A DNA stretch of 32,000 nucleotides from Xylanibacter ruminicola 23. Lineage in GTDB: Bacteria; Bacteroidota; Bacteroidia; Bacteroidales; Bacteroidaceae. The stretch is taken from assembly GCF_000025925.1 (NCBI RefSeq), contig NC_014033.1:1320001-1352000 (forward strand), in the 5' to 3' direction. Positions within the stretch are counted from its first letter, which is position 1. The number at the start of each line of letters is the position of its first letter. The translations under genes and the position numbers were made by a program. A model generated the notes under the pieces. The model was not told the DNA's origin. It saw only the letters and a list, made by a program, of their open reading frames with translations, and did no database searches. Positions 6,164-24,746 of the stretch are shown here, piece by piece.

Positions 6164-6298
6164 CTTTTGTCAAACCATTAAGTAATATCCATTTGCTATC
6201 TTCTGATATTATTGAGTGCAAAGGTACAAAAAAGAATCGGAAAAATTTGTTTTTTCACTTTTATTTAACGGTTCTGACATAATAAAGTGTCCACAGAA

Positions 6299-6492
6299 TT
6301 TGGTTATTTCAACAATTCTTCTTACCTTTGCAGCGATGAAGGGTCATTAAAACGGCTGGTGGCTCGGAGTCACGGGTTCTTTGAAAGCAATTCAATGCAG
6401 AACGTGGAATTGAGAACGGTCTCCAAATCGTAACCCGCGACATTTCCCAATCCCCCGAACTGCCTTTATACAAAGAAAGATTGCTTTTTCTA
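6299..6492 (+). ncRNA. Candidate orphan sRNA (promoter plus about 155-nt rod-like transcript), unclassified
   Basis: Canonical Bacteroides promoter on the plus strand: TTTG 6299-6302, then a 20-nt spacer, then TACCTTTG 6323-6330. No plus-strand ORF follows it (ATG AAG GGT CAT TAA only). Nested pairings: GTCACGGGTT 6370-6379 with AACCCGCGAC 6432-6441, and CAATTC 6388-6393 with GAATTG 6407-6412. A weak T-rich end lies at 6480-6492. The class is not recognised. Confidence 0.35.
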
Positions 6493-15874: not shown

Positions 15875-18154
15875 TCACAGAGGCAGTCCAAGTTGCTGAT
15901 ATTCAGCCGCTTCGTCGTCATCCGCCTCTTTAAATTCAAAGTTAAAATCTTCGGAGGCAATATATACTTGCTGATGGTCGAGCGGGATTTCAACAACCTT
16001 AAAGAAGTTGCCATTACGCTTATGCATGCTTTCATATCCCAGTTCGAGCATAATATCCCCTATCTTACGATTTGAGAAAAAGTTATTATGCCTGCCATAG
16101 TTTAAAAACAGGTTTATCATCTGCGAACTCATCAATTGATAAGGTTCATTCTTCTTTGGCTTGCGCAAACGTATCACAATCATCTGCTCTTCGGGGCTGA
16201 TAACCCTGAAAGGCTCGTTAAGTTGCTTTACACGCTTCTCGTCGGCTTTCGAAAAGTAATACTTAAACCCCTCATAGTACTCCTTTTGTAGCTGAGCATA
16301 CAACTGTGCGTAATCGATGGTCCACTCAAACGGACTGTCAATCTCGCTTAACTTAAAGCAAAGCCATCGCCGGTTACCGGTTGCATCTGTCAATATCTGT
16401 TGCTCGTTGGTTGATGCGCATAGCGAGGCTAAACGTGGTTTCTCCTCACGTGCGCGACCATATACAGGGCGCTCTTTTATCTTATCGGCAGTAACCAATG
16501 CTTTCAATTTAGCCAGCTCCGTTCCCTCAAAAGCCGACACCTCCTCGAGCTCTATCACACAGTGCTCCTGCATAGCTATACGATCGTCTTTCTGCGATAC
16601 AGAGTTGGTGCGGTTCTCCATAAAATAGGATTGGAGCTGTGGTGGCAGCAGATGACGGAAGAACTCGGTTTTATACTTTCCCTGCGGACCAACGAGCGTA
16701 AAAATACAGTGATTCATTACACGGTCGTCGAGCCATGTGCCCACCGCAGCCACCATCCATTTATGAAAAGCCCAGTGCATGGCCTCCTGTGCCTCCTTGT
16801 CGGTCATATCCGGTGTGGCCGAAACAGCATGGATATGGTCGGATAGCTCTTTCACACGGTCGATACCATCCCACTCAGGTAGCAGCTTCATATATTGTCG
16901 GATGGGATGCACTTTCAGCGCAAAGTCGCTTTTATAAACAGCCCTCAGATGTTTCTCCTCTACACGCTTTCCTGTATCAAGTTCTATCTGATACATGCGG
17001 GTGTTTATCTCTACATCATCAACAGGTTGCCATTTGTCGGATGTTAATGGCGGCAACGAAGAAATCAGGTCATCATCATCATCCCCATCAGTTTCGGCGA
17101 TATCATCCCTCGAGCACCATAGCAAGGCGTTGGTTAATATATTAAAGCAGCACACGATACGTTCGGATAGCCATTTTCTTATTTCGGGCAGTGTCATCAG
17201 TACGTTACCGCGTGGTTTCTCCATCCCGGGCAGGCGCCAGGTGCCATGCAGTGCTTCCTTTTTATAGCAATGACTGATGGCCCTGTCGCGCTCTTTCTTT
17301 GTGTGGTCGCGCCACTCTACATCGGCAAACTTCACAAGCTCGTCTTTCGGCACACCGTAACGGTTAAACAGGTAAGCGGCATGCAGTATGTAATCGTGAT
17401 GGTGACCAGGCTCATAGCGTATCTGTTTCTGCGACAACTGCTGCTCGATATGTTGCCACGCCTCTTCAGCTTTTACCTCGAACGATTTAGCATCGTAAAC
17501 CTTACGGGGACGGCCGTGTTCCTGATGCTCGCAGTTCTGTTCCACTATCATATCGTCGGAAATAACGAAAGGTACGGCCTGCTCGTTAAAATACACATCG
17601 GGATCGCCAGCCAAACACGACAAGCGTGTAAAATCGCTGTTGGCCTTATCGTAAGGGTGCTGTGCCACGGCAGCCAGATACTCATTACCCTTGATAAAAG
17701 CGCCCTGCCACGAGGTATCATCGATACGTTTTCCACCCTCGCGCTCGTAACAATAGATGATGTGCAAACCTAATCCGCCTATCGAGCGATACATCAACAG
17801 TACATGCGGATCCTTGGAGAGCCGCTCGATGGCGGCCTCCAATTCTTCCACACTCTCAAAATGATCGATATCACACAGGGCAAGCCTCGTCCATCCACAG
17901 GCCTGCGCCGCACTATGTCCTAACCCACTAAAATTTACTGCCACACCAAAGGCAGGCTGCAGTTGCGATTTGATATAACTATCAGCCTGCTTTTTGCCCA
18001 TCGCTGCCATTGTTTTACGATAGCTAACGGTATTGGCGGCAACAATTTTATCGTAACGTATAAAGTGTACAATCTCATTTAGAGTTTTAAGTACGTTAGA
18101 GTAGCTTGTATGGTTAGCAAATAGTGATACCTTTAGTTTGTTAATATCCATCAT
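15875..18154 (-). CDS. VirE-N/primase-helicase protein (BT4734-like N-domain + VirE/VapE P-loop domain)
   Basis: 759 aa. The N-terminus has the Bacteroides VirE_N/primase-like region. The C-terminal half has Walker A GPQGKYKT and the NRRWLCF motif characteristic of the virulence-associated E (PF05272-like) family. Confidence 0.85.
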   Translation of the reverse strand: MMDINKLKVSLFANHTSYSNVLKTLNEIVHFIRYDKIVAANTVSYRKTMAAMGKKQADSYIKSQLQPAFGVAVNFSGLGHSAAQACGWTRLALCDIDHFESVEELEAAIERLSKDPHVLLMYRSIGGLGLHIIYCYEREGGKRIDDTSWQGAFIKGNEYLAAVAQHPYDKANSDFTRLSCLAGDPDVYFNEQAVPFVISDDMIVEQNCEHQEHGRPRKVYDAKSFEVKAEEAWQHIEQQLSQKQIRYEPGHHHDYILHAAYLFNRYGVPKDELVKFADVEWRDHTKKERDRAISHCYKKEALHGTWRLPGMEKPRGNVLMTLPEIRKWLSERIVCCFNILTNALLWCSRDDIAETDGDDDDDLISSLPPLTSDKWQPVDDVEINTRMYQIELDTGKRVEEKHLRAVYKSDFALKVHPIRQYMKLLPEWDGIDRVKELSDHIHAVSATPDMTDKEAQEAMHWAFHKWMVAAVGTWLDDRVMNHCIFTLVGPQGKYKTEFFRHLLPPQLQSYFMENRTNSVSQKDDRIAMQEHCVIELEEVSAFEGTELAKLKALVTADKIKERPVYGRAREEKPRLASLCASTNEQQILTDATGNRRWLCFKLSEIDSPFEWTIDYAQLYAQLQKEYYEGFKYYFSKADEKRVKQLNEPFRVISPEEQMIVIRLRKPKKNEPYQLMSSQMINLFLNYGRHNNFFSNRKIGDIMLELGYESMHKRNGNFFKVVEIPLDHQQVYIASEDFNFEFKEADDDEAAEYQQLGLPL

Positions 18155-18842: not shown

Positions 18843-19215
18843 TTTGATTATTGTCCGCTTTTAACTACCTTTGCAAACGATCGCCGGCACATACCATAGT
18901 GAAAGGCTACGGGTAGGCGAACTCTGTTCGGGAATGGTGCCGGTGTGACTTTTGTGGGTAAATAAATAACAGCATTAGCTGATTATTCGGTACATCTTGA
19001 AACCTAGGAAATTTCACAGATTGAACAACCGATGATTAGTCACTGATGTCTGCGTCGTATGGCGTGGACATGACTTATCTGGTTGTTCGGGCTTTCCTAG
19101 GGCCTCAAGATGTAGATAAGGCGGTTCACGCTTTTTCTATGTCTTGCGGTCCCATTAGTTTAGCCCGTGTAAATCCCGATAAGTCGGCAGTGCTATAAAC
19201 CGAATAATAGCAACT
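18843..19215 (+). promoter_or_regulatory. Promoter plus about 335-nt highly structured 5' leader of the MmeI-like gene
   Basis: TTTG 18843-18846, then a 19-nt spacer, then TACCTTTG 18866-18873. Hairpin 1: GCCGGCAC 18883-18890 with GTGCCGGT 18937-18944, followed by gtgacTTTTg. Hairpin 2 is a 122-nt imperfect hairpin (18992-19113) with more than 30 bp: ACATCTTGA/TCAAGATGT, CCTAGGAAA/TTTCCTAGG, GAACAACC/GGTTGTTC. A long-range 10-bp helix pairs ATTATTCGGT 18982-18991 with ACCGAATAAT 19199-19208 and ends 7 nt before the ATG at 19216. Confidence 0.55.
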
Positions 19216-21987
19216 ATGACCGACAAACAACAGTCAGCCGCCGCTGCAGCCTTTGCTGAGCGGTGGAGAGGCAGAGGGTATGAACGGGGTGAATCACAGT
19301 CATTCTGGATTGACCTCCTGAGCAACGTGTATGGAATCGATACACCTACCAATGGTTTTATCACTTTCGAAGACCATCAGATGGTGGATAGCTCAAACTT
19401 TATCGATGGTCGCATACCATCCACCAAGGTGCTTATCGAACAGAAATCACTGGGTAAGGATTTGCGTAAAGGCATCCACCAAAGCGATGGTTCGCTGCTT
19501 AATCCATTCCAGCAGGCACGCCGCTATGTGGTGAGTCTGCCTGTATCCGAACATCCACGATGGATTGTCACCTGCAACTTCTCAGAGTTTCTGGTTTACG
19601 ATATGGAGCAGCCCAATGGCGAACCCGAACAGATACTACTTGAGAATCTAGGAAAAGAATACTATCGCCTGCAGTTTTTGGTAGATGCAAAGAACGACCA
19701 CCTGCGTAAGGAGATGGAGGTATCGATGCAGGCAGGCGAAATAGTGGGTCGCATCTACGAGGCACTGCTCAAACAATATGATGATAACTCTACCGAGGCC
19801 CTGCGATGGCTAAACATCCTGTGTGTGCGCATCGTATTCTGCTTGTATGCCGAAGATGCAGGAATTTTCAGTCACGACCAATTCCATGATTTTCTGGTAA
19901 CTTACGAGGCCAAGGACCTTCGCCGTGCACTGCGCGATTTGTTCGAGGTTCTAAATACCCCTAAAGAGCAACGCAGCAAATACCTGCAGGCAGAACTGGC
20001 TGCATTCCCATACACTAATGGCGGACTGTTTGCTGAAACCATCGAGATACCGCAGTTTACCGATGAGCTGAAGCAGACACTGCTGCAGAATGCCAGTCTG
20101 GATTTTGACTGGAGCGAAATCTCCCCCACTATATTTGGTGCCGTATTTGAGAGTACGCTCAATCCTGAGACGCGTCGCAGTGGTGGTATGCACTACACCT
20201 CGATAGAGAATATCCATAAGGTTATCGATCCATTGTTCTTGAACGACCTACGTGCTGAACTCGATGAAATATTGGATGAGAAAGTTGAGAAGCAACGCGT
20301 TCGAAAACTCGATGCCTATCAAGACAAGTTAGCATCGCTCACCTTCCTGGATCCTGCCTGCGGCTCAGGTAACTTCCTGACCGAAACCTACCTGAGTTTG
20401 CGCCGATTAGAGAACGAGGCTATCCGTTCTAAATACCACGACCAAACCATGATAGGTGCATTTATGAACCCCATCAAAGTGAGCATCCACCAATTTTATG
20501 GTATCGAGATTAACGACTTTGCTGTAACCGTAGCCACAACAGCTTTATGGATCAGCGAGGCTCAGATGATGGCTGAAACAGAGAAAATAGTAACCTTTGA
20601 AGATAACTTTCTGCCTTTAAAAAGCTACTCAAATATCCACGAAGGCAATGCCCTCCGCACCGATTGGGAAACCGTAGTACCCAAATCCCACCTTACTTAT
20701 ATAATAGGTAACCCACCGTTTGTGGGAGCTAATATAATGAATGATAATCAAAGAGCTGATATAAGGTCCATTTTTGGTAGTAAATGGAAGAACATCGGTG
20801 AAATGGACTATGTAACAGGATGGTACTTGAAGGCAACTCAAATGATGCATGGAACAGATATACGTACGGCTTTAGTTTCGACAAATAGCATATCACAAGG
20901 AGAACAAGTTGCCAATCTATGGAAACCACTCTTTGAAGAAGGTGTTCACATAGACTTTGCCCATCGCACATTTCGCTGGGATAGTGAAGCATCACTTAAA
21001 GCACATGTTCACTGCGTAATTATAGGATTTAGCTGCACGAACGATAAACATACAATGACCATTTACGACAATGCAAAGGAACATAAAGCATCAAACATTA
21101 ATGCATATTTGATGGATGCCCCAAATGTATTTGTCGAGAGTAAGAGCAAACCCTTATGTAGGGTACCTTCTATTCGTAAAGGCAATCAACCTACTGATGG
21201 TGGTAATCTTATAATAGAAGCAGCTGATCTTGAAAACTTTCTTGCTTGTGAACCAAAATCAAGAAAATTTATAAAACGCCTAATTGGATCAAAAGAATAC
21301 ATAAACAATAAAGCAAGATACTGTCTTTGGCTTAAAGAAGCAACACCTGCAGAATTAAGGCAGATGCCAACAGTTCTTAACCGCATAGAAGGCGTGCGGA
21401 AAATGCGAGAATCAAGTAGTGACGAAGCTACTCGCCGTCTTGCCAATTATCCTCACTTATTCCGTGAGACGAACAACCCTGAAACGTACATCGTAGTTCC
21501 CAGCGTCTCTTCTGAGCGTCGTCGTTATGTTCCAATGGGATTTCTTACCAAAGACACCATTCCTACCAACCTCGTTTTAATTATACCTGATGCAACTTTA
21601 TATCATTTCGGTATTCTTGAAAGTAATGTTCATATGGCTTGGATGAGAGCTGTATGTGGACGATTAGAAATGCGATATCGATATTCCAAGGATGTTGTTT
21701 ACAACAACTTCCCCTGGCCTACTCCAACAGAAGAACAAAAAGAAAAGATAGAGCAAACGGCCCAGGCTATCTTAGATGCCCGTGCCCTCTACCCCGACTC
21801 TTCTTTGGCCGACCTCTACGACGAGCTAACCATGCCCGTTGAACTCCGCAAAGCCCACCAAGAGAACGACCGCGCCGTCATGGCAGCTTATGGTTTCCCC
21901 ATCAAGACCACGACCGAAAGCCAGTGTGTAGCCGAGCTGTTCAAACTATATCAAGAACTTACAAACAAAAAACCAATAACGATATGA
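19216..21987 (+). CDS. Type IIL/IIG single-chain restriction-modification enzyme, MmeI family (endonuclease + gamma-class N6-adenine methyltransferase + TRD)
   Basis: 923 aa (MmeI is about 919 aa). The N-terminus AAFAERWRGRGYERGESQSFWIDLL is typical of the family. PD-(D/E)xK-like motif FIDGRIPSTKVLIEQK (D-x10-E-x-K). MTase motif I LDPACGSGNFL lies upstream of motif IV IIGNPPFVG. Long C-terminal TRD/helical region. Confidence 0.85.
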   Translation: MTDKQQSAAAAAFAERWRGRGYERGESQSFWIDLLSNVYGIDTPTNGFITFEDHQMVDSSNFIDGRIPSTKVLIEQKSLGKDLRKGIHQSDGSLLNPFQQARRYVVSLPVSEHPRWIVTCNFSEFLVYDMEQPNGEPEQILLENLGKEYYRLQFLVDAKNDHLRKEMEVSMQAGEIVGRIYEALLKQYDDNSTEALRWLNILCVRIVFCLYAEDAGIFSHDQFHDFLVTYEAKDLRRALRDLFEVLNTPKEQRSKYLQAELAAFPYTNGGLFAETIEIPQFTDELKQTLLQNASLDFDWSEISPTIFGAVFESTLNPETRRSGGMHYTSIENIHKVIDPLFLNDLRAELDEILDEKVEKQRVRKLDAYQDKLASLTFLDPACGSGNFLTETYLSLRRLENEAIRSKYHDQTMIGAFMNPIKVSIHQFYGIEINDFAVTVATTALWISEAQMMAETEKIVTFEDNFLPLKSYSNIHEGNALRTDWETVVPKSHLTYIIGNPPFVGANIMNDNQRADIRSIFGSKWKNIGEMDYVTGWYLKATQMMHGTDIRTALVSTNSISQGEQVANLWKPLFEEGVHIDFAHRTFRWDSEASLKAHVHCVIIGFSCTNDKHTMTIYDNAKEHKASNINAYLMDAPNVFVESKSKPLCRVPSIRKGNQPTDGGNLIIEAADLENFLACEPKSRKFIKRLIGSKEYINNKARYCLWLKEATPAELRQMPTVLNRIEGVRKMRESSSDEATRRLANYPHLFRETNNPETYIVVPSVSSERRRYVPMGFLTKDTIPTNLVLIIPDATLYHFGILESNVHMAWMRAVCGRLEMRYRYSKDVVYNNFPWPTPTEEQKEKIEQTAQAILDARALYPDSSLADLYDELTMPVELRKAHQENDRAVMAAYGFPIKTTTESQCVAELFKLYQELTNKKPITI

Positions 21988-22022
21988 TATAAAGCCATCA
22001 ATAATAAAAAAACAGGAAATTA

Positions 22023-22054
22023 TTTGGAAGTTTCAAAATATCTTCCTATCTTTG
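22023..22054 (+). promoter_or_regulatory. Promoter of sRNA copy A
   Basis: TTTG 22023-22026, 20-nt spacer, TATCTTTG 22047-22054. The spacer contains the palindrome GGAAG (22026-22030) / CTTCC (22042-22046). Confidence 0.7.
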
Positions 22055-22059
22055 CAGCG

Positions 22060-22190
22060 TGAAAGGTGGAACCAAGTAGAGCCACGATGTGCGGAACGGT
22101 GGCATCTGTGTGATGATGAGCAATTCGACCTTGCCGCTTGGTTTCATAAACATAGCGCCCATCACTCAATCGAGGGATGGGCGTTTTCTA
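22060..22190 (+). ncRNA. Structured sRNA, copy A (cloverleaf/tRNA-like hand fold), unclassified family
   Basis: Starts about 6 nt after the -7 box. Ends at a terminator: CGCCCATC 22156-22163 with GATGGGCG 22176-22183, followed by TTTT. About 95% identical over the core to copy B, apart from a variable hairpin and compensatory terminator changes. Closing helix ACCAAGT 22071-22077 with GCTTGGT 22136-22142. Inner hairpins GCCAC/GTGGC (22081-22085 with 22099-22103) and CATC-tgtgt-GATG (22103-22115). A third hairpin, GCAA-TTCGACC-TTGC (22120-22134), has a T-loop-like heptaloop. Confidence 0.65.
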
Positions 22191-22638
22191 TTTTCACATA
22201 TCGCTTTCCATTAAATTCCTTCTTATCTATACGACGTGTTGCCGTAATGAAGTTTACAAGCTTTACCTGTTCGCGATTTACTTTCATTTTATAGTTCGGA
22301 TGAATGATGAATTTGGAAACTTCGTCGGTATAGATGAAGCATTCGCCATCGTAGTATAGATCCATCTTAAATCGGCTTTTGGGAAAACGCACAAGTTCCT
22401 CAGCTGAAACAACCAGTCCCTTGGCACCTTTTGAGGCACGCATGCAATGCTGTAACTGTTTAGCGCTCATATATAATTGCTCGCAAGCCAACTTTATGCC
22501 ATTGTTCTGAGCAAACTGCACCATTCTCTGTTCCACATCACCGATACTAAACGGCTGTATAGCAGAAAAACCTTTCTGCTCTATATCAATCAAAACAGCT
22601 GTGATCTGTTCTTCTATCGTTGGTTTATCTGATTCCAT
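22162..22638 (-). CDS. Hypothetical protein (158 aa), convergent with and overlapping the terminator of sRNA copy A
   Basis: ATG at 22636-22638. Own minus-strand promoter TATCTTTG at 22663-22670. The last 7 sense codons plus the stop lie inside the sRNA terminator hairpin. No family recognised by eye. Confidence 0.6.
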   Translation of the reverse strand: MESDKPTIEEQITAVLIDIEQKGFSAIQPFSIGDVEQRMVQFAQNNGIKLACEQLYMSAKQLQHCMRASKGAKGLVVSAEELVRFPKSRFKMDLYYDGECFIYTDEVSKFIIHPNYKMKVNREQVKLVNFITATRRIDKKEFNGKRYVKIENAHPSIE

Positions 22639-22804
22639 ATACTTTCTTAAGCAAATCGCCTACAAAGATAAGACTTTATTTTAAACCCAACAAGCATATA
22701 GGCAAAAAACAAGAAAAAAATCCACGATGTGCGGTGCTCGTCCCAGACTTCCGAAATATCATCGAAGGTCGCAATAAGTTGGTCTTCTTCATGAGGATCA
22801 CATT

Positions 22805-22845
22805 CCCCCTAAAGCGCATCTCTTTCTTAGGGAATAATGAATAAT
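22805..22845 (+). repeat. Intergenic 40-nt repeat, copy R1 (CCCCC-TAAAGCGCATCT-n-TTCTTAGGGAATAATGAATAA)
   Basis: One of three near-identical copies (22805-22845, 24028-24067, 24506-24545), all in the same orientation. It contains the internal inverted repeat CCCTAA...TTAGGG. Stop codons in R2 and R3 exclude a conserved reading frame. Confidence 0.75.
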
Positions 22846-22847
22846 AA

Positions 22848-22879
22848 AGAAGCAGGGCATTTAACTGCCCTGCTTTCTT
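22848..22879. terminator. Bidirectional terminator hairpin after the 330-aa gene
   Basis: AGAAGCAGGGCA-tttaac-TGCCCTGCTTTCT with T-rich tracts on both strands. It lies 5 nt downstream of the 22884 stop. A homologous hairpin is at 24071-24102. Confidence 0.7.
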
Positions 22880-22883
22880 GTTA

Positions 22884-23876
22884 TTATTTATCTTCACCAT
22901 GCAACCACTGCCACTTCCATGTTGCCATACGTTCCAAATCAGGTGAGAACTGGATGATATTGCCATCGCGAGAAACATAGCCTAAATCAATAGCCAATTG
23001 CAAATCTTTATCGTAATCATTATAGCTTTCCCATCTAGCTTTCTTCATAGCCATCACAAAGTCGTCGTAAAAACAGCGACCTTTTCCTATCTTTTCCAAA
23101 CAACATAACAGGTGATAAACAAGTTTGCCATTTTCCCCGCTCTCAACATAGTTGCCATAAAGCTTCGCCAACTCAATTAGTTCGTTAACCTGCAGCTGAT
23201 AGTCGGCATACCCGTCTTTCAGCTTGATATTCTCAAAGGTAACACCAACTTCATCCCAATTATTAATCTGACGCCATAATCCACTTAAAACTTCTCGTGG
23301 AGATATTATTAATTCGTCACTATTCCATATATTTACTTTCAAAGCAATATCTTTTCTAACCTCCAAATAATAACTTTTGCTATCATTATCGCCATAATAA
23401 CATTTGATATCGCCTTCAACTTCCTTCATCTTGCAGTTATCGGCTAGATTAATTTTTAATCCTGTCATCATTATTCTTTTAATAATGCTCTTCATTGGCA
23501 GATATCCATCAGAGCAGAACAAATCCATCCATCCAATCTTGACTAATTTGTCCTTCCCGATGGTGTCACCAACAAAGCCTAAGAAGATCGGGTCACTTAT
23601 CATAGGCCCCATATCATCAGGTATATAGCAATGCTCAAAGTCAAGCATATATTCATTCGGCATACGGTAAACAGCTTTGCTTTCGAAACACATTTTACCC
23701 TCCTCGTTCACTTTTCCTGTTAGCATAGTACCTATCAACTGCGCAATAGTTGTAAACGGGCCTTCATAAACGAAAGCATAGACCGCATAGGGCTTTTCTG
23801 CGGGTACGTAATGACTCTGATAATTTGCTCCCTGAACCGTAATTGGTCCTGAGTAATGATTGTGAATTTGATCCAT
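22884..23876 (-). CDS. Hypothetical protein (330 aa), possible C-terminal winged-helix
   Basis: ATG at 23874-23876. Minus-strand promoter TACCTTTG at 23926-23933. Terminator directly after the stop. The C-terminal segment KLVYHLLCCLEKIGKGRCFYDDFVMAM...LAIDLGYVSRDGNIIQFSPD looks wHTH-like. The N-terminal domain is not recognised. Confidence 0.6.
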   Translation of the reverse strand: MDQIHNHYSGPITVQGANYQSHYVPAEKPYAVYAFVYEGPFTTIAQLIGTMLTGKVNEEGKMCFESKAVYRMPNEYMLDFEHCYIPDDMGPMISDPIFLGFVGDTIGKDKLVKIGWMDLFCSDGYLPMKSIIKRIMMTGLKINLADNCKMKEVEGDIKCYYGDNDSKSYYLEVRKDIALKVNIWNSDELIISPREVLSGLWRQINNWDEVGVTFENIKLKDGYADYQLQVNELIELAKLYGNYVESGENGKLVYHLLCCLEKIGKGRCFYDDFVMAMKKARWESYNDYDKDLQLAIDLGYVSRDGNIIQFSPDLERMATWKWQWLHGEDK

Positions 23877-24027
23877 AATTTGGTTTATTTTTATTTAGTA
23901 ACTTATGTATTTGTAATTGCGCTTGCAAAGGTACTAAAAGTTTTTTAAACTCAGCATTAAATAAGAAAAAATATATCCTAAAATAGGACATGTTTTTTAG
24001 TCACCTACATCTCTTCATTAAGAGCTT

Positions 24028-24067
24028 CCCCCTTAAACACATCTAGTTCTTAGGGAATAATGAATAA
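24028..24067 (+). repeat. Intergenic 40-nt repeat, copy R2
   Basis: CCCCCTTAAACACATCTAGTTCTTAGGGAATAATGAATAA, followed as in R1 by a homologous terminator hairpin. Confidence 0.75.
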
Positions 24068-24070
24068 AAA

Positions 24071-24102
24071 AGAAGCAGGACAGTAAAATACCCTGCTTTC
24101 TT
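24071..24102. terminator. Terminator hairpin homologous to 22848-22879
   Basis: AGAAGCAGGACAgtaaaaTACCCTGCTTTCT, followed by TGTTTT. It lies downstream of the 69-aa gene. Confidence 0.6.
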
Positions 24103-24182
24103 GTTTTATGCTATCGGATGAGGTTTAAATGTTCCATCAGGAAATAGAAAAGAAACATCTACAATATCTCTCTGATGGTATT

Positions 24183-24392
24183 TCATAAATAACGCTCTAT
24201 TGTTTTAGACATACTTTTACGAGAATGACTTAGAAATGCGTTTCTAAGTTCTCTATGCGCTTCCACTTCATCAGGCTTAGGCTCGTAAGGAATATGTTCC
24301 TTTTTAGCGAATAGCCCTGTGGCAAGTAAAGCGGCTAACTTACGCCTTGCTAGAGCGTTGTTTGGATTGTATTCTAATGTTATGGTGCACAT
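24183..24392 (-). CDS. Hypothetical small protein (69 aa)
   Basis: ATG at 24390-24392. MCTITLEYNPNNALARRKLAALLATGLF... resembles small Bacteroidales accessory-region proteins. No assigned function. Confidence 0.5.
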   Translation of the reverse strand: MCTITLEYNPNNALARRKLAALLATGLFAKKEHIPYEPKPDEVEAHRELRNAFLSHSRKSMSKTIERYL

Positions 24393-24505
24393 AATTGTAT
24401 GTATTATTTGAATTTGGGTGCTAATATAAGGATTTATTTTATATAAACAAAGTAATTATTCAAAAAAATGACAATAATCGAGAGTTAACCCTCCTGATAG
24501 AAACT

Positions 24506-24545
24506 CCCCCTTAAGCGCATCTTGTTCTTAGGGAATAATGAATAA
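24506..24545 (+). repeat. Intergenic 40-nt repeat, copy R3
   Basis: CCCCCTTAAGCGCATCTTGTTCTTAGGGAATAATGAATAA. It lies directly upstream of the promoter of sRNA copy B. This copy has no terminator hairpin. Confidence 0.75.
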
Positions 24546-24566
24546 AAGCATTTTTCTTTAAAAATA

Positions 24567-24598
24567 TTTGGAACTTTCAGAAAGAGTTCCTATCTTTG
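24567..24598 (+). promoter_or_regulatory. Promoter of sRNA copy B
   Basis: TTTG 24567-24570, 20-nt spacer, TATCTTTG 24591-24598. Spacer palindrome GGAAC (24570-24574) / GTTCC (24586-24590), which is the compensated version of the copy A palindrome. Confidence 0.7.
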
Positions 24599-24603
24599 CA
24601 GCG

Positions 24604-24745
24604 TGAAAGGTGGAACCAAGTAGAGCCACGATGTGCGGAACGGTGGCATGGCTGCAGCAATGCAGAGATGATGAGCAATTCGACCTTGCCGCTTGGTTTC
24701 ATAAGCATAGCGACCATCACTTGTTTGAGTGGTGGTCGTTTTTAT
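24604..24745 (+). ncRNA. Structured sRNA, copy B
   Basis: Same core as copy A (24604-24650 and 24667-24710). The variable arm is replaced by CTGCA-GCAA-TGCAG (24652-24665, with a GNRA loop). Terminator CGACCATCACT 24711-24721 with AGTGGTGGTCG 24728-24738, followed by TTTTT. Confidence 0.65.
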
Positions 24746-24746
24746 T

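Follow-up and report, generated by a model that had tools for sequence, protein, structure and literature searches.

An important question raised by a small RNA and a protein gene that run into one another at their 3' ends is whether the two are functionally coupled or just happen to share a border. This question is posed by a 32,000-nucleotide (nt) stretch of the chromosome of Xylanibacter ruminicola 23 (contig NC_014033.1, positions 1,320,001 to 1,352,000 of the forward strand), here called the window, in which a predicted small RNA (sRNA copy A) converges with an open reading frame (ORF) for a protein of 158 amino acids (aa) on the opposite strand. In our reading, the two genes together make up a self-contained module that has spread horizontally in rumen Prevotella/Xylanibacter and most likely works like a toxin–antitoxin (TA) or abortive-infection pair. 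The more specific reading that we favour, i.e. that the sRNA would be the antidote of a TA-like pair, with antisense coupling at the 3' ends, is offered as a tentative proposal that in our estimate falls somewhat short of an even chance.

The two genes meet in a single hairpin. An earlier note on this DNA had read positions 22156-22183 both as the terminator of the sRNA and as the last seven sense codons plus stop of the protein gene, and these coordinates are correct: they delimit the GC core of a hairpin at 22154-22185, inside which the seven codons take up 22165-22185. This hairpin is predicted to fold on both strands, with a free energy (dG) of -21.0 kcal/mol (z = -6.5 against shuffled sequences) on the plus strand, where a U-rich tail follows, and of -19.3 kcal/mol (z = -5.7) on the minus strand. 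The stem of the bidirectional terminator that had been claimed is thus predicted on either strand, but the U-tract past the hairpin on the minus strand is weak, so that read-through of the mRNA into the sRNA gene is possible; the overlap, put by the note at about 30 nt or more, comes to about 29 nt between the coding sequence and the predicted sRNA at this locus if the predicted transcript ends are taken. Compensatory changes have accumulated in the terminator hairpin between copy A, a second sRNA copy in the window (copy B) and other loci. Upstream, a Bacteroidetes-type promoter at 22023-22054 places the predicted start of the sRNA near 22060. Of the strong promoter that the ORF had been credited with, the -7 box is present, but no clear -33 element could be read from the sequence; a TAnnTTTG box lies 6-30 nt ahead of the ATG in most of 16 modules inspected. 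At five loci (L015, L020, L022, L033 and L040) the -7 box of the protein gene is just 6-8 nt away from the ATG, which predicts mRNAs with hardly any leader or none.

This convergent layout with overlapping 3' ends is not a peculiarity of the window and goes well beyond what chance would produce. The same sRNA lies immediately downstream of the gene, and convergent with it, at all of about 45 loci (eight homologous proteins, 65-98% identical to the window protein), and the pairing holds while the surrounding genes vary. In all 64 distinct modules the stop codon is located either within the hairpin (30 modules) or 0-6 nt past it in the U-tail (34 modules), a fixed position that is kept although the terminator sequences differ. 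The canonical C-terminus of the family is ...KI or ...KV with a TAA in the U-tail; for most members, the U-tail is also the only part of the sRNA that the coding sequence reaches. In the window version this canonical stop has been lost, and the reading frame continues for seven codons within the hairpin; the extension is not conserved, such C-terminal extensions vary by locus, and family-wide homology stops at residue ~150. Since the coding sequence always ends in the sRNA terminator or its U-tail, the 3' ends of mRNA and sRNA must be complementary.

The two partners are not equally dependent on each other. Exact-pattern scans detected the sRNA in 23 loci of rumen Prevotella/Xylanibacter genomes and in at least 120 metagenome contigs, and an exact 27-mer of it occurs in about 20 of 185,579 species genomes; this patchy occurrence among Prevotella argues that it is no housekeeping RNA. 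It is absent from IMG/VR, INPHARED and PLSDB, and carriage of the whole module by phages or plasmids was rejected, there being no DNA match in INPHARED or PLSDB and no tblastn match in phages. Downstream sequence is long enough for an assessment at 92 metagenome sRNA loci: the protein gene is full-length at 50 of them, partial at 13 and absent at 29, and several of the last retain some codons from its 3' end beside the terminator. Thus, within the rumen Prevotella clade the gene was never seen without the sRNA, which itself often stands without the gene or beside remnants of it. The integrity of the sRNA tracks the gene in a way that favours an antidote: grossly damaged sRNAs, which are either truncated or interrupted by GC-rich inserts of 30-40 nt (in the promoter, in the loop of P2 or in P4; helices as in table 1), are limited to gene-less loci (7 of 47 versus none of 55 gene-bearing loci; Fisher p = 0.003). 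The inserts are REP-like, 30-40 nt long and found in either orientation (loci L014, L016, L024, L026, L061 and L087, and window positions 22735-22740); three sites are hit repeatedly, namely the stretch that separates the -7 box from the start, the apical P2 loop behind GCGG and the 3' side of P4, and none of the sRNA copies that bear them has the protein gene.

A comparison of X. ruminicola strains shows how variable these surroundings are. Strain D31d (locus L027) has flanks 91-95% identical to those of the window and a 96% identical sRNA including its promoter, but lacks the MmeI-type restriction-modification gene (19216-21987), the 158-aa gene, two orphan genes (22884-23876 and 24183-24392), sRNA copy B and the gene for a 1244-aa Schlafen/AlbA_2 protein. 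The region 19015-28854 of the window is strain-specific, and D31d has ~600 bp on each side, replacing the MmeI gene and 6.6 kb of cargo. That the sRNA is found at the same chromosomal site without its neighbouring island genes speaks for its accessory status, in line with the favoured reading. Elsewhere the module is next to genes for MmeI/Eco57I restriction-modification, AAA_21, SNF2-PLD, Fic, MNT, PIN and HEPN proteins; the flanking genes differ between loci, and no conserved protein-coding partner of the gene was found among them. From these varied defence and TA neighbours the module emerges as a portable element of defence islands, with the sRNA as the marker of one such hypervariable island in rumen Prevotella.

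What kind of protein is encoded? The earlier note had found no recognisable family, which holds for curated libraries (no match to the 158-aa protein in Pfam, PHROGs, NCBIfam or PADLOC, and no consistent Pfam match at E <= 1 across all 36 aligned relatives) but can be refined to a relationship with phage MuF proteins. The family comprises 988 clusters at 90% identity, each hypothetical or unnamed, and 245 clusters at 50% identity in an exhaustive HMMER search; a hidden Markov model (HMM) search of PDB sequences returned nothing, and a search seeded with P0139 returned P0139 alone. In an alignment of 36 diverse members H64, R67, K70, F85 and K109 are invariant and T132 (over 90% conserved) and A133 nearly so, and the invariant His, Arg and Lys span phage and bacterial homologues. 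An AlphaFold2 model (pLDDT 94.6) consists of an N-terminal alpha/beta part, helices that carry H64, R67 and K70 (H64 on helix 59-65) and a four-strand sheet (93-96, 101-104, 108-120 and 123-135) that includes T132; the N-terminus is acidic, and there is no hydrophobic helix in this confident alpha/beta model. The family, if the model is followed, has a confident fold without a relative in PDB, where Foldseek gave no match (best E = 0.31). In BFVD, Foldseek matches an uncharacterised siphovirus protein (E = 1e-7, TM 0.69); other BFVD matches, two large myovirus proteins named 'Nuclease' and one 'Minor capsid protein', are suggestive only.

It is the phage homologues that give the protein an ancestry. 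The C-termini of four distantly related proteins of 291-530 aa (P0142, P0192, P0201 and P0210) align to query residues ~7-153, with E values of 1e-18 to 1e-28 and 35-45% identity, and their N-termini match MuF, minor-head and Bxa PHROGs; the P0201 gene directly follows an SPP1-type portal gene. MuF relatives in IMG/VR bear other C-termini, as expected at a polymorphic position, and another homologue, 47% identical, is encoded after an ADP-ribosyltransferase toxin gene. This C-terminal homology identifies the 158-aa protein as a stand-alone MuF C-terminal effector domain, and the C-terminal position of MuF polymorphic toxins is the site of their toxin domains (PMC5576092, PMC5512222), which provides some basis for calling the protein a toxin. 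The most common class of such domains, PBECR, has been characterized by a conserved His on a helix, 4-5 strands behind it and a C-terminal Thr or Ser (PMC5512222); at this level of description, the helix with its His, the four-strand sheet and the conserved Thr of the family fit. The phage versions of the domain have no such sRNA.

According to the reading that we favour, the ~150-aa protein, as a stand-alone copy of a phage MuF C-terminal effector domain, would be a metal-independent RNase-like toxin that uses H64, R67, K70 and T132, and the convergent ~130-nt cloverleaf sRNA would keep it under control as the antidote. Less intact mRNA would be left if the two hairpins paired or the converging polymerases collided, as in type I TA systems with a 3' overlap, and the invariant structured core of the sRNA probably adds a second function, i.e. 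protein binding or stabilization of the sRNA. This proposal draws on the one-way dependence of gene on sRNA, on decay that hits the gene and not the sRNA, on the 3'-to-3' geometry, on the lack of a protein partner and on toxin-like ancestry; given that the overlap at the terminator is obligatory, antisense action of the type I kind is the simplest mechanism, and the location among defence and TA genes strengthens the TA-like idea as such. In this general form the interpretation of the earlier note is supported in part, with a conserved portable two-gene module among defence and TA genes, homology at the MuF toxin position and one-way dependence all on its side.

Several observations weigh against an antidote. 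Toxicity of the protein would have to be taken from domain ancestry, and recognised toxin domains are present in only 34% of MuF C-terminal extensions (PMC5576092); moreover, neither a Pfam PBECR model nor a BECR structure in PDB matches, so that family models and solved structures do not back the fit to the PBECR pattern. The overlap is short and complementary by construction, and its conservation is therefore inseparable from that expected of simple terminator sharing, and no consistent further complementarity between sRNA and mRNA was detected. A near-invariant, structured core without complementarity to the mRNA, and orphan sRNAs that are still intact at 31 of 47 gene-less loci, point to a role of the sRNA in its own right; an antitoxin that worked purely as antisense RNA could do without such a core, which together with the intact orphans is left unexplained by antisense action alone. 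One-way dependence could also arise if the gene preferred to land beside a pre-existing sRNA. Finally, all sampling is from one clade, in which phylogenetic non-independence inflates the counts.

Some of these points lead directly to the strongest competing explanation, which we regard as possible though rather unlikely: the sRNA would be an independent accessory RNA—a trans-acting regulator or a conserved island landmark of the kind that tRNA and tmRNA genes provide—and the gene a hitch-hiker, one among several cargo genes, that borrows its terminator without any regulatory link. The sRNA is indeed without the gene at about a third of the loci and mostly intact there, with PIN, HEPN, HicB-like or ORF6N genes as convergent neighbours instead at orphan loci; D31d has the sRNA alone at the site of the window, other strains have variable cargo on both sides, the invariant core is not complementary to the mRNA, and REP-like inserts together with tandem remnants characterize a recombination-prone locus. 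Against a hitch-hiking gene, this gene is never met away from the sRNA throughout the clade, despite widely differing surroundings, and the position of its stop relative to the hairpin is fixed in 64 of 64 modules. Integrases or att-type direct repeats flanking the gene are not a general feature, and a cassette model, in which the gene would have been inserted into the sRNA at CCACGATGTGCGG between direct repeats, was rejected, second sRNA fragments beyond the gene being found in just 5 of 101 loci, all of them tandem arrays of the X. ruminicola type. The patchiness of the sRNA among Prevotella, which speaks against a housekeeping RNA, also weighs against this explanation.

The antidote reading, for its part, has to accommodate a structured RNA. 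Copies A and B fold better than shuffled sequences (z = -2.8 and -3.8), and an alignment of 85 unique sRNA sequences, evaluated with RNAalifold and position-anchored counts, contains a near-invariant core of ~90 nt. P1 pairing is 98.4% canonical in register versus 31-67% when slid, and 85 of 97 deviating cells are still paired (30.5 +/- 4.5 expected for random substitutions); at locus L073, the P1 sequence is wholly different yet complementary. P3 occurs in 41 variants, every one of them a hairpin, with many compensatory changes, and P4 shows a single compensatory change from A-U to U-A. Substitutions in P1 are often from A-U to G·U, and P1 is 98% canonical on the plus versus 89% on the minus strand; of 86 distinct upstream regions, all picked because a -7 box immediately precedes the sRNA, 74 also have a TTTG-like -33 element at the distance expected, across spacers of variable sequence. 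The changes in P1 that favour the plus strand and the conserved plus-strand promoter together indicate a genuine plus-strand RNA. An inverted repeat in the spacer, considered as the true terminator of the mRNA, forms a hairpin in 20 of the 86 promoters and was rejected as a general solution.

No Rfam model, those for FopS, GibS and Bacteroides motifs included, matches the sRNA, either at gathering score in the whole window and eight loci or at E <= 10 in 21900-25000. Judged from its alignment, it is a structured RNA family absent from Rfam and near-invariant across species. In the lengths of its four-way junction and in its 7-nt loop UUCGACC, the sRNA looks like a tRNA cloverleaf with a T-loop. 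This is a resemblance only; ARAGORN calls no tRNA or tmRNA gene, and the Rfam tRNA, tmRNA and YrlA models do not recognize the sRNA. Complementarity of the core to the mRNA was not found either: duplex energies are no better than those of shuffled sequences (z mostly -1 to +1), and predicted core–mRNA pairing sites disagree between loci. Tandem repeats in 21900-25000 are limited to one unrelated 20-nt repeat.

Such a molecule could instead act on the protein itself. We consider it unlikely, and less probable than a hitch-hiking gene, that the sRNA binds the protein directly as a decoy, substrate mimic or cofactor that restrains or guides a tRNA- or rRNA-targeting RNase, with the 3' overlap being incidental; such a pair would resemble a type III TA system or a ribonucleoprotein defence sensor. 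The idea gains from the tRNA-like junction lengths, the UUCGACC loop that matches the T-loop pattern, the GG in the P2 loop and the habit of BECR-type RNases to commonly cleave tRNA (PMC5512222), but the blindness of all tRNA-type models to the sRNA counts against it, and P2 and P4 are invariant, which places the proposed tertiary contacts beyond the reach of covariation. Extreme conservation of the core is typical of partner-constrained RNAs; here, however, the RNA is invariant while the protein diverges to 55-65% identity, unlike a co-evolving specific binder. P3 is the only helix that varies, and in 60 of 61 modules its form, short or long, goes together with one of two C-terminal types of the protein (FNGKRY or FTLPKY), as it might in a binding partner, but the compared segments (window 22104-22114 and 22165-22240) are less than 100 bp apart, and linkage can account for the association; since N-terminal parts of the protein are common to both C-terminal types, recombination breakpoints must lie inside the gene. 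Neither tandem repeats nor the same-strand gene order of known type III systems is present. In its boldest form, which we rate as more unlikely still, the sRNA would be a tRNA-shaped decoy that silences a MuF-derived RNase of new fold, the pair would define a new class of RNA–protein TA or abortive-infection systems that is neither type I nor type III, and shut-off of host transcription by a phage, or phage-driven degradation of the short-lived decoy, would free the RNase to cut tRNA or rRNA.

Convergent genes with a common terminator are frequent. Least probable of all, nevertheless, is that the protein is no toxin but a domesticated phage effector, acting for example in anti-defence, RNA processing or regulation, which is merely co-inherited with the sRNA by way of a shared bidirectional terminator: toxicity is undemonstrated for most MuF C-terminal extensions (PMC5576092), the domains of polyvalent proteins include many non-toxic enzymes (PMC5512222) and no toxin or defence HMM matches the protein, but the gene has frequently and independently been truncated or deleted with the sRNA retained, the module sits among defence and TA genes, and the His, Arg and Lys are invariant across phage and bacterial homologues.

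Table 1. Features of the convergent module, its further copies and its neighbourhood, in window coordinates.
Feature	Position	Strand	Details
158-aa protein gene	22162-22638	-	ends ...ENAHPSIE, TGA stop at 22162-22164
Promoter, sRNA copy A	22023-22054	+	-33 TTTG 22023-22026; -7 TATCTTTG 22047-22054; 20 nt between
sRNA copy A, ~130 nt	22060-22194	+	short 5' leader, cloverleaf core, terminator; short-P3 form
Four-helix core	22068-22145	+	RNAalifold consensus
P1	22068-22076 paired with 22137-22145	+	9-12 bp across sequences
P2	22081-22103	+	GCCAC/GUGGC, invariant; loop contains GG
P3	22104-22114	+	hairpin on CAU/AUG base; short and long forms
P4	22120-22134	+	GCAA-UUCGACC-UUGC; T-loop-like loop UUCGACC
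Shared hairpin	22154-22185	both	plus: sRNA terminator; minus: last 7 codons and stop of ORF
-7 box of the ORF's own promoter (TATCTTTG)	22663-22670	-	5' untranslated region ~19 nt
Decayed further sRNA copy, 13 nt (CCACGATGTGCGG)	22722-22734	+	exact P2-region match
Promoter, sRNA copy B	24567-24598	+	-33 TTTG 24567-24570; -7 TATCTTTG 24591-24598
sRNA copy B, long-P3 form	24604-24750	+	terminator hairpin 24709-24740 (terminator scan)
Remnant of second protein-gene copy	24747-24826	-	-7 box 24819-24826 and 15 codons (MESDKPTVEEQIIKR and stop, 24747-24794)
1244-aa protein gene	24961-28695	+	Schlafen/AlbA_2 domain only at residues 857-995, rest uncharacterised
VapE-like/BT4734-N primase-type gene	15875-18154	-	left edge of island
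Repeated 43-80-nt element (TCCCCCT.AA.C.CATCT...TTCTTAGGGAATAATGAATAA)	22803-22882, 24026-24105, 24505-24547		three copies

The window also contains a further sRNA copy and several remnants. Copies A and B share two blocks, at 92% and 88% identity, and the protein-gene remnant beside copy B is 89% identical to 22604-22679, with its stop again within the U-tail of the sRNA. A search for the CCACGATGTGCGG fragment gave 4 matches versus 0.45 expected, and a longer sRNA remnant occupies the equivalent place of the 22722 fragment in locus L001. A supposed third sRNA copy at 6298-6342 was discarded, its similarity being confined to the promoter. On the plus strand of 6298-6460, this sRNA-like promoter (TTACCTTTGCAGCG) precedes an unannotated stretch of ~150 nt that is convergent on a serine dehydratase gene; this stretch matches nothing in Rfam and is possibly a further sRNA. 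Past the protein-gene promoter of locus L002 (5650-5900, minus strand) there is a GC-rich, apparently structured region of ~250 nt with the same kind of promoter, which has no Rfam match at gathering score.

Two repeats were noted in and around the variable DNA. The 43-80-nt element, the first two copies of which include a bidirectional terminator, bounds two minus-strand genes without family match, for proteins of 330 aa (22884-23876) and 69 aa (24183-24392); it is also found ahead of the sRNA promoter in locus L001 and looks like a cassette boundary. A direct repeat of 70 nt, 93% identical between its copies, connects the right edge of the variable island just past the Schlafen/AlbA_2 gene (28694-28763) with the 3' end of a ketopantoate reductase gene (31195-31264), and may be an attachment-site scar or a carried-over flank.

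If the toxin–antidote reading is true, RNA-antitoxin systems would be extended to Bacteroidota and to a large enzymatic toxin of phage origin, an orphan family of about 1,000 clusters at 90% identity would gain a function, and a new structured RNA family, absent from Rfam, would be defined. Whatever the mechanism, the sRNA provides an anchor for mining defence genes in rumen Prevotella, an abundant genus of the rumen.

How, then, does the pair compare with known systems? A description of the sRNA, the protein family or their pairing was not found in Rfam, Pfam, PADLOC or the searchable literature, and each of the systems that come to mind shares some of its traits. With the MuF polymorphic toxins and PBECR domains (Jamet 2017, PMC5576092; Iyer 2017, PMC5512222) it has in common the homologous C-terminal extension and the His helix followed by a four-strand sheet with a Thr. 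In contrast to these toxins, the window protein is stand-alone, has its own promoter, resides in a bacterial chromosome, contains no MuF domain, matches neither a Pfam PBECR or MuF_C HMM nor a PDB entry, and has the sRNA downstream instead of an immunity ORF. Without a MuF domain and an immunity ORF, it is not itself a MuF toxin.

Among structured RNAs, the YrlA/Y RNA-like sRNAs and the tRNA and tmRNA genes that anchor islands offer a similar cloverleaf-like junction, a T-loop-like hairpin and adjoining variable defence cargo, but the window sRNA has neither a CCA end nor an anticodon-type loop, and there is no Ro/Rsr protein or integrase nearby. FopS and GibS of Bacteroides are likewise multicopy sRNAs with a canonical Bacteroidota promoter and conservation across species (PMC11697453). 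The FopS RNAs, however, consist of a single-stranded seed and a terminator, 65-70 nt in all, and their family is reported to have been deposited in Rfam (PMC11697453), whereas the window sRNA is ~130 nt long, has a four-helix core and lacks an Rfam match; identity with FopS is ruled out by size and structure.

ToxIN, CptIN and TenpIN, i.e. the type III systems, often serve in phage defence and are reminiscent of our pair in that a structured RNA could neutralize an endoribonuclease-like protein. Yet the window sRNA does not consist of tandem repeats, the genes are convergent whereas RNA, terminator and toxin of type III systems follow one another on one strand, and the protein has no ToxN/AbiQ or PADLOC match.

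Closest in layout are the type I systems TxpA/RatA and BsrG/SR4 of Bacillus subtilis, in which a convergent sRNA and protein gene also have their own promoters and a shared terminator region; as in other type I systems with a 3' overlap, the transcripts are complementary at their 3' ends, and the pair is compact and located in accessory DNA. The overlap in systems of the TxpA/RatA and BsrG/SR4 type is about 75-120 nt, whereas the provable overlap here is the terminator only. Their toxins are hydrophobic membrane peptides of less than 60 aa, whereas the protein here is a soluble alpha/beta protein of ~150 aa, and outside the overlap lies the large core of the window sRNA, which is structured, invariant and without complementarity to the mRNA; it is on these three points that the type I comparison drawn in the earlier note does not carry over. 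The host, too, is different, as it belongs to the Bacteroidota, and a limited literature search brought up no type I system in Bacteroides. Overall, the module combines the predicted cis-encoded antisense overlap of a type I system with a protein that is not a small hydrophobic toxin, and as a convergent pair of a structured sRNA and a phage-related effector domain it fits neither type I nor type III.

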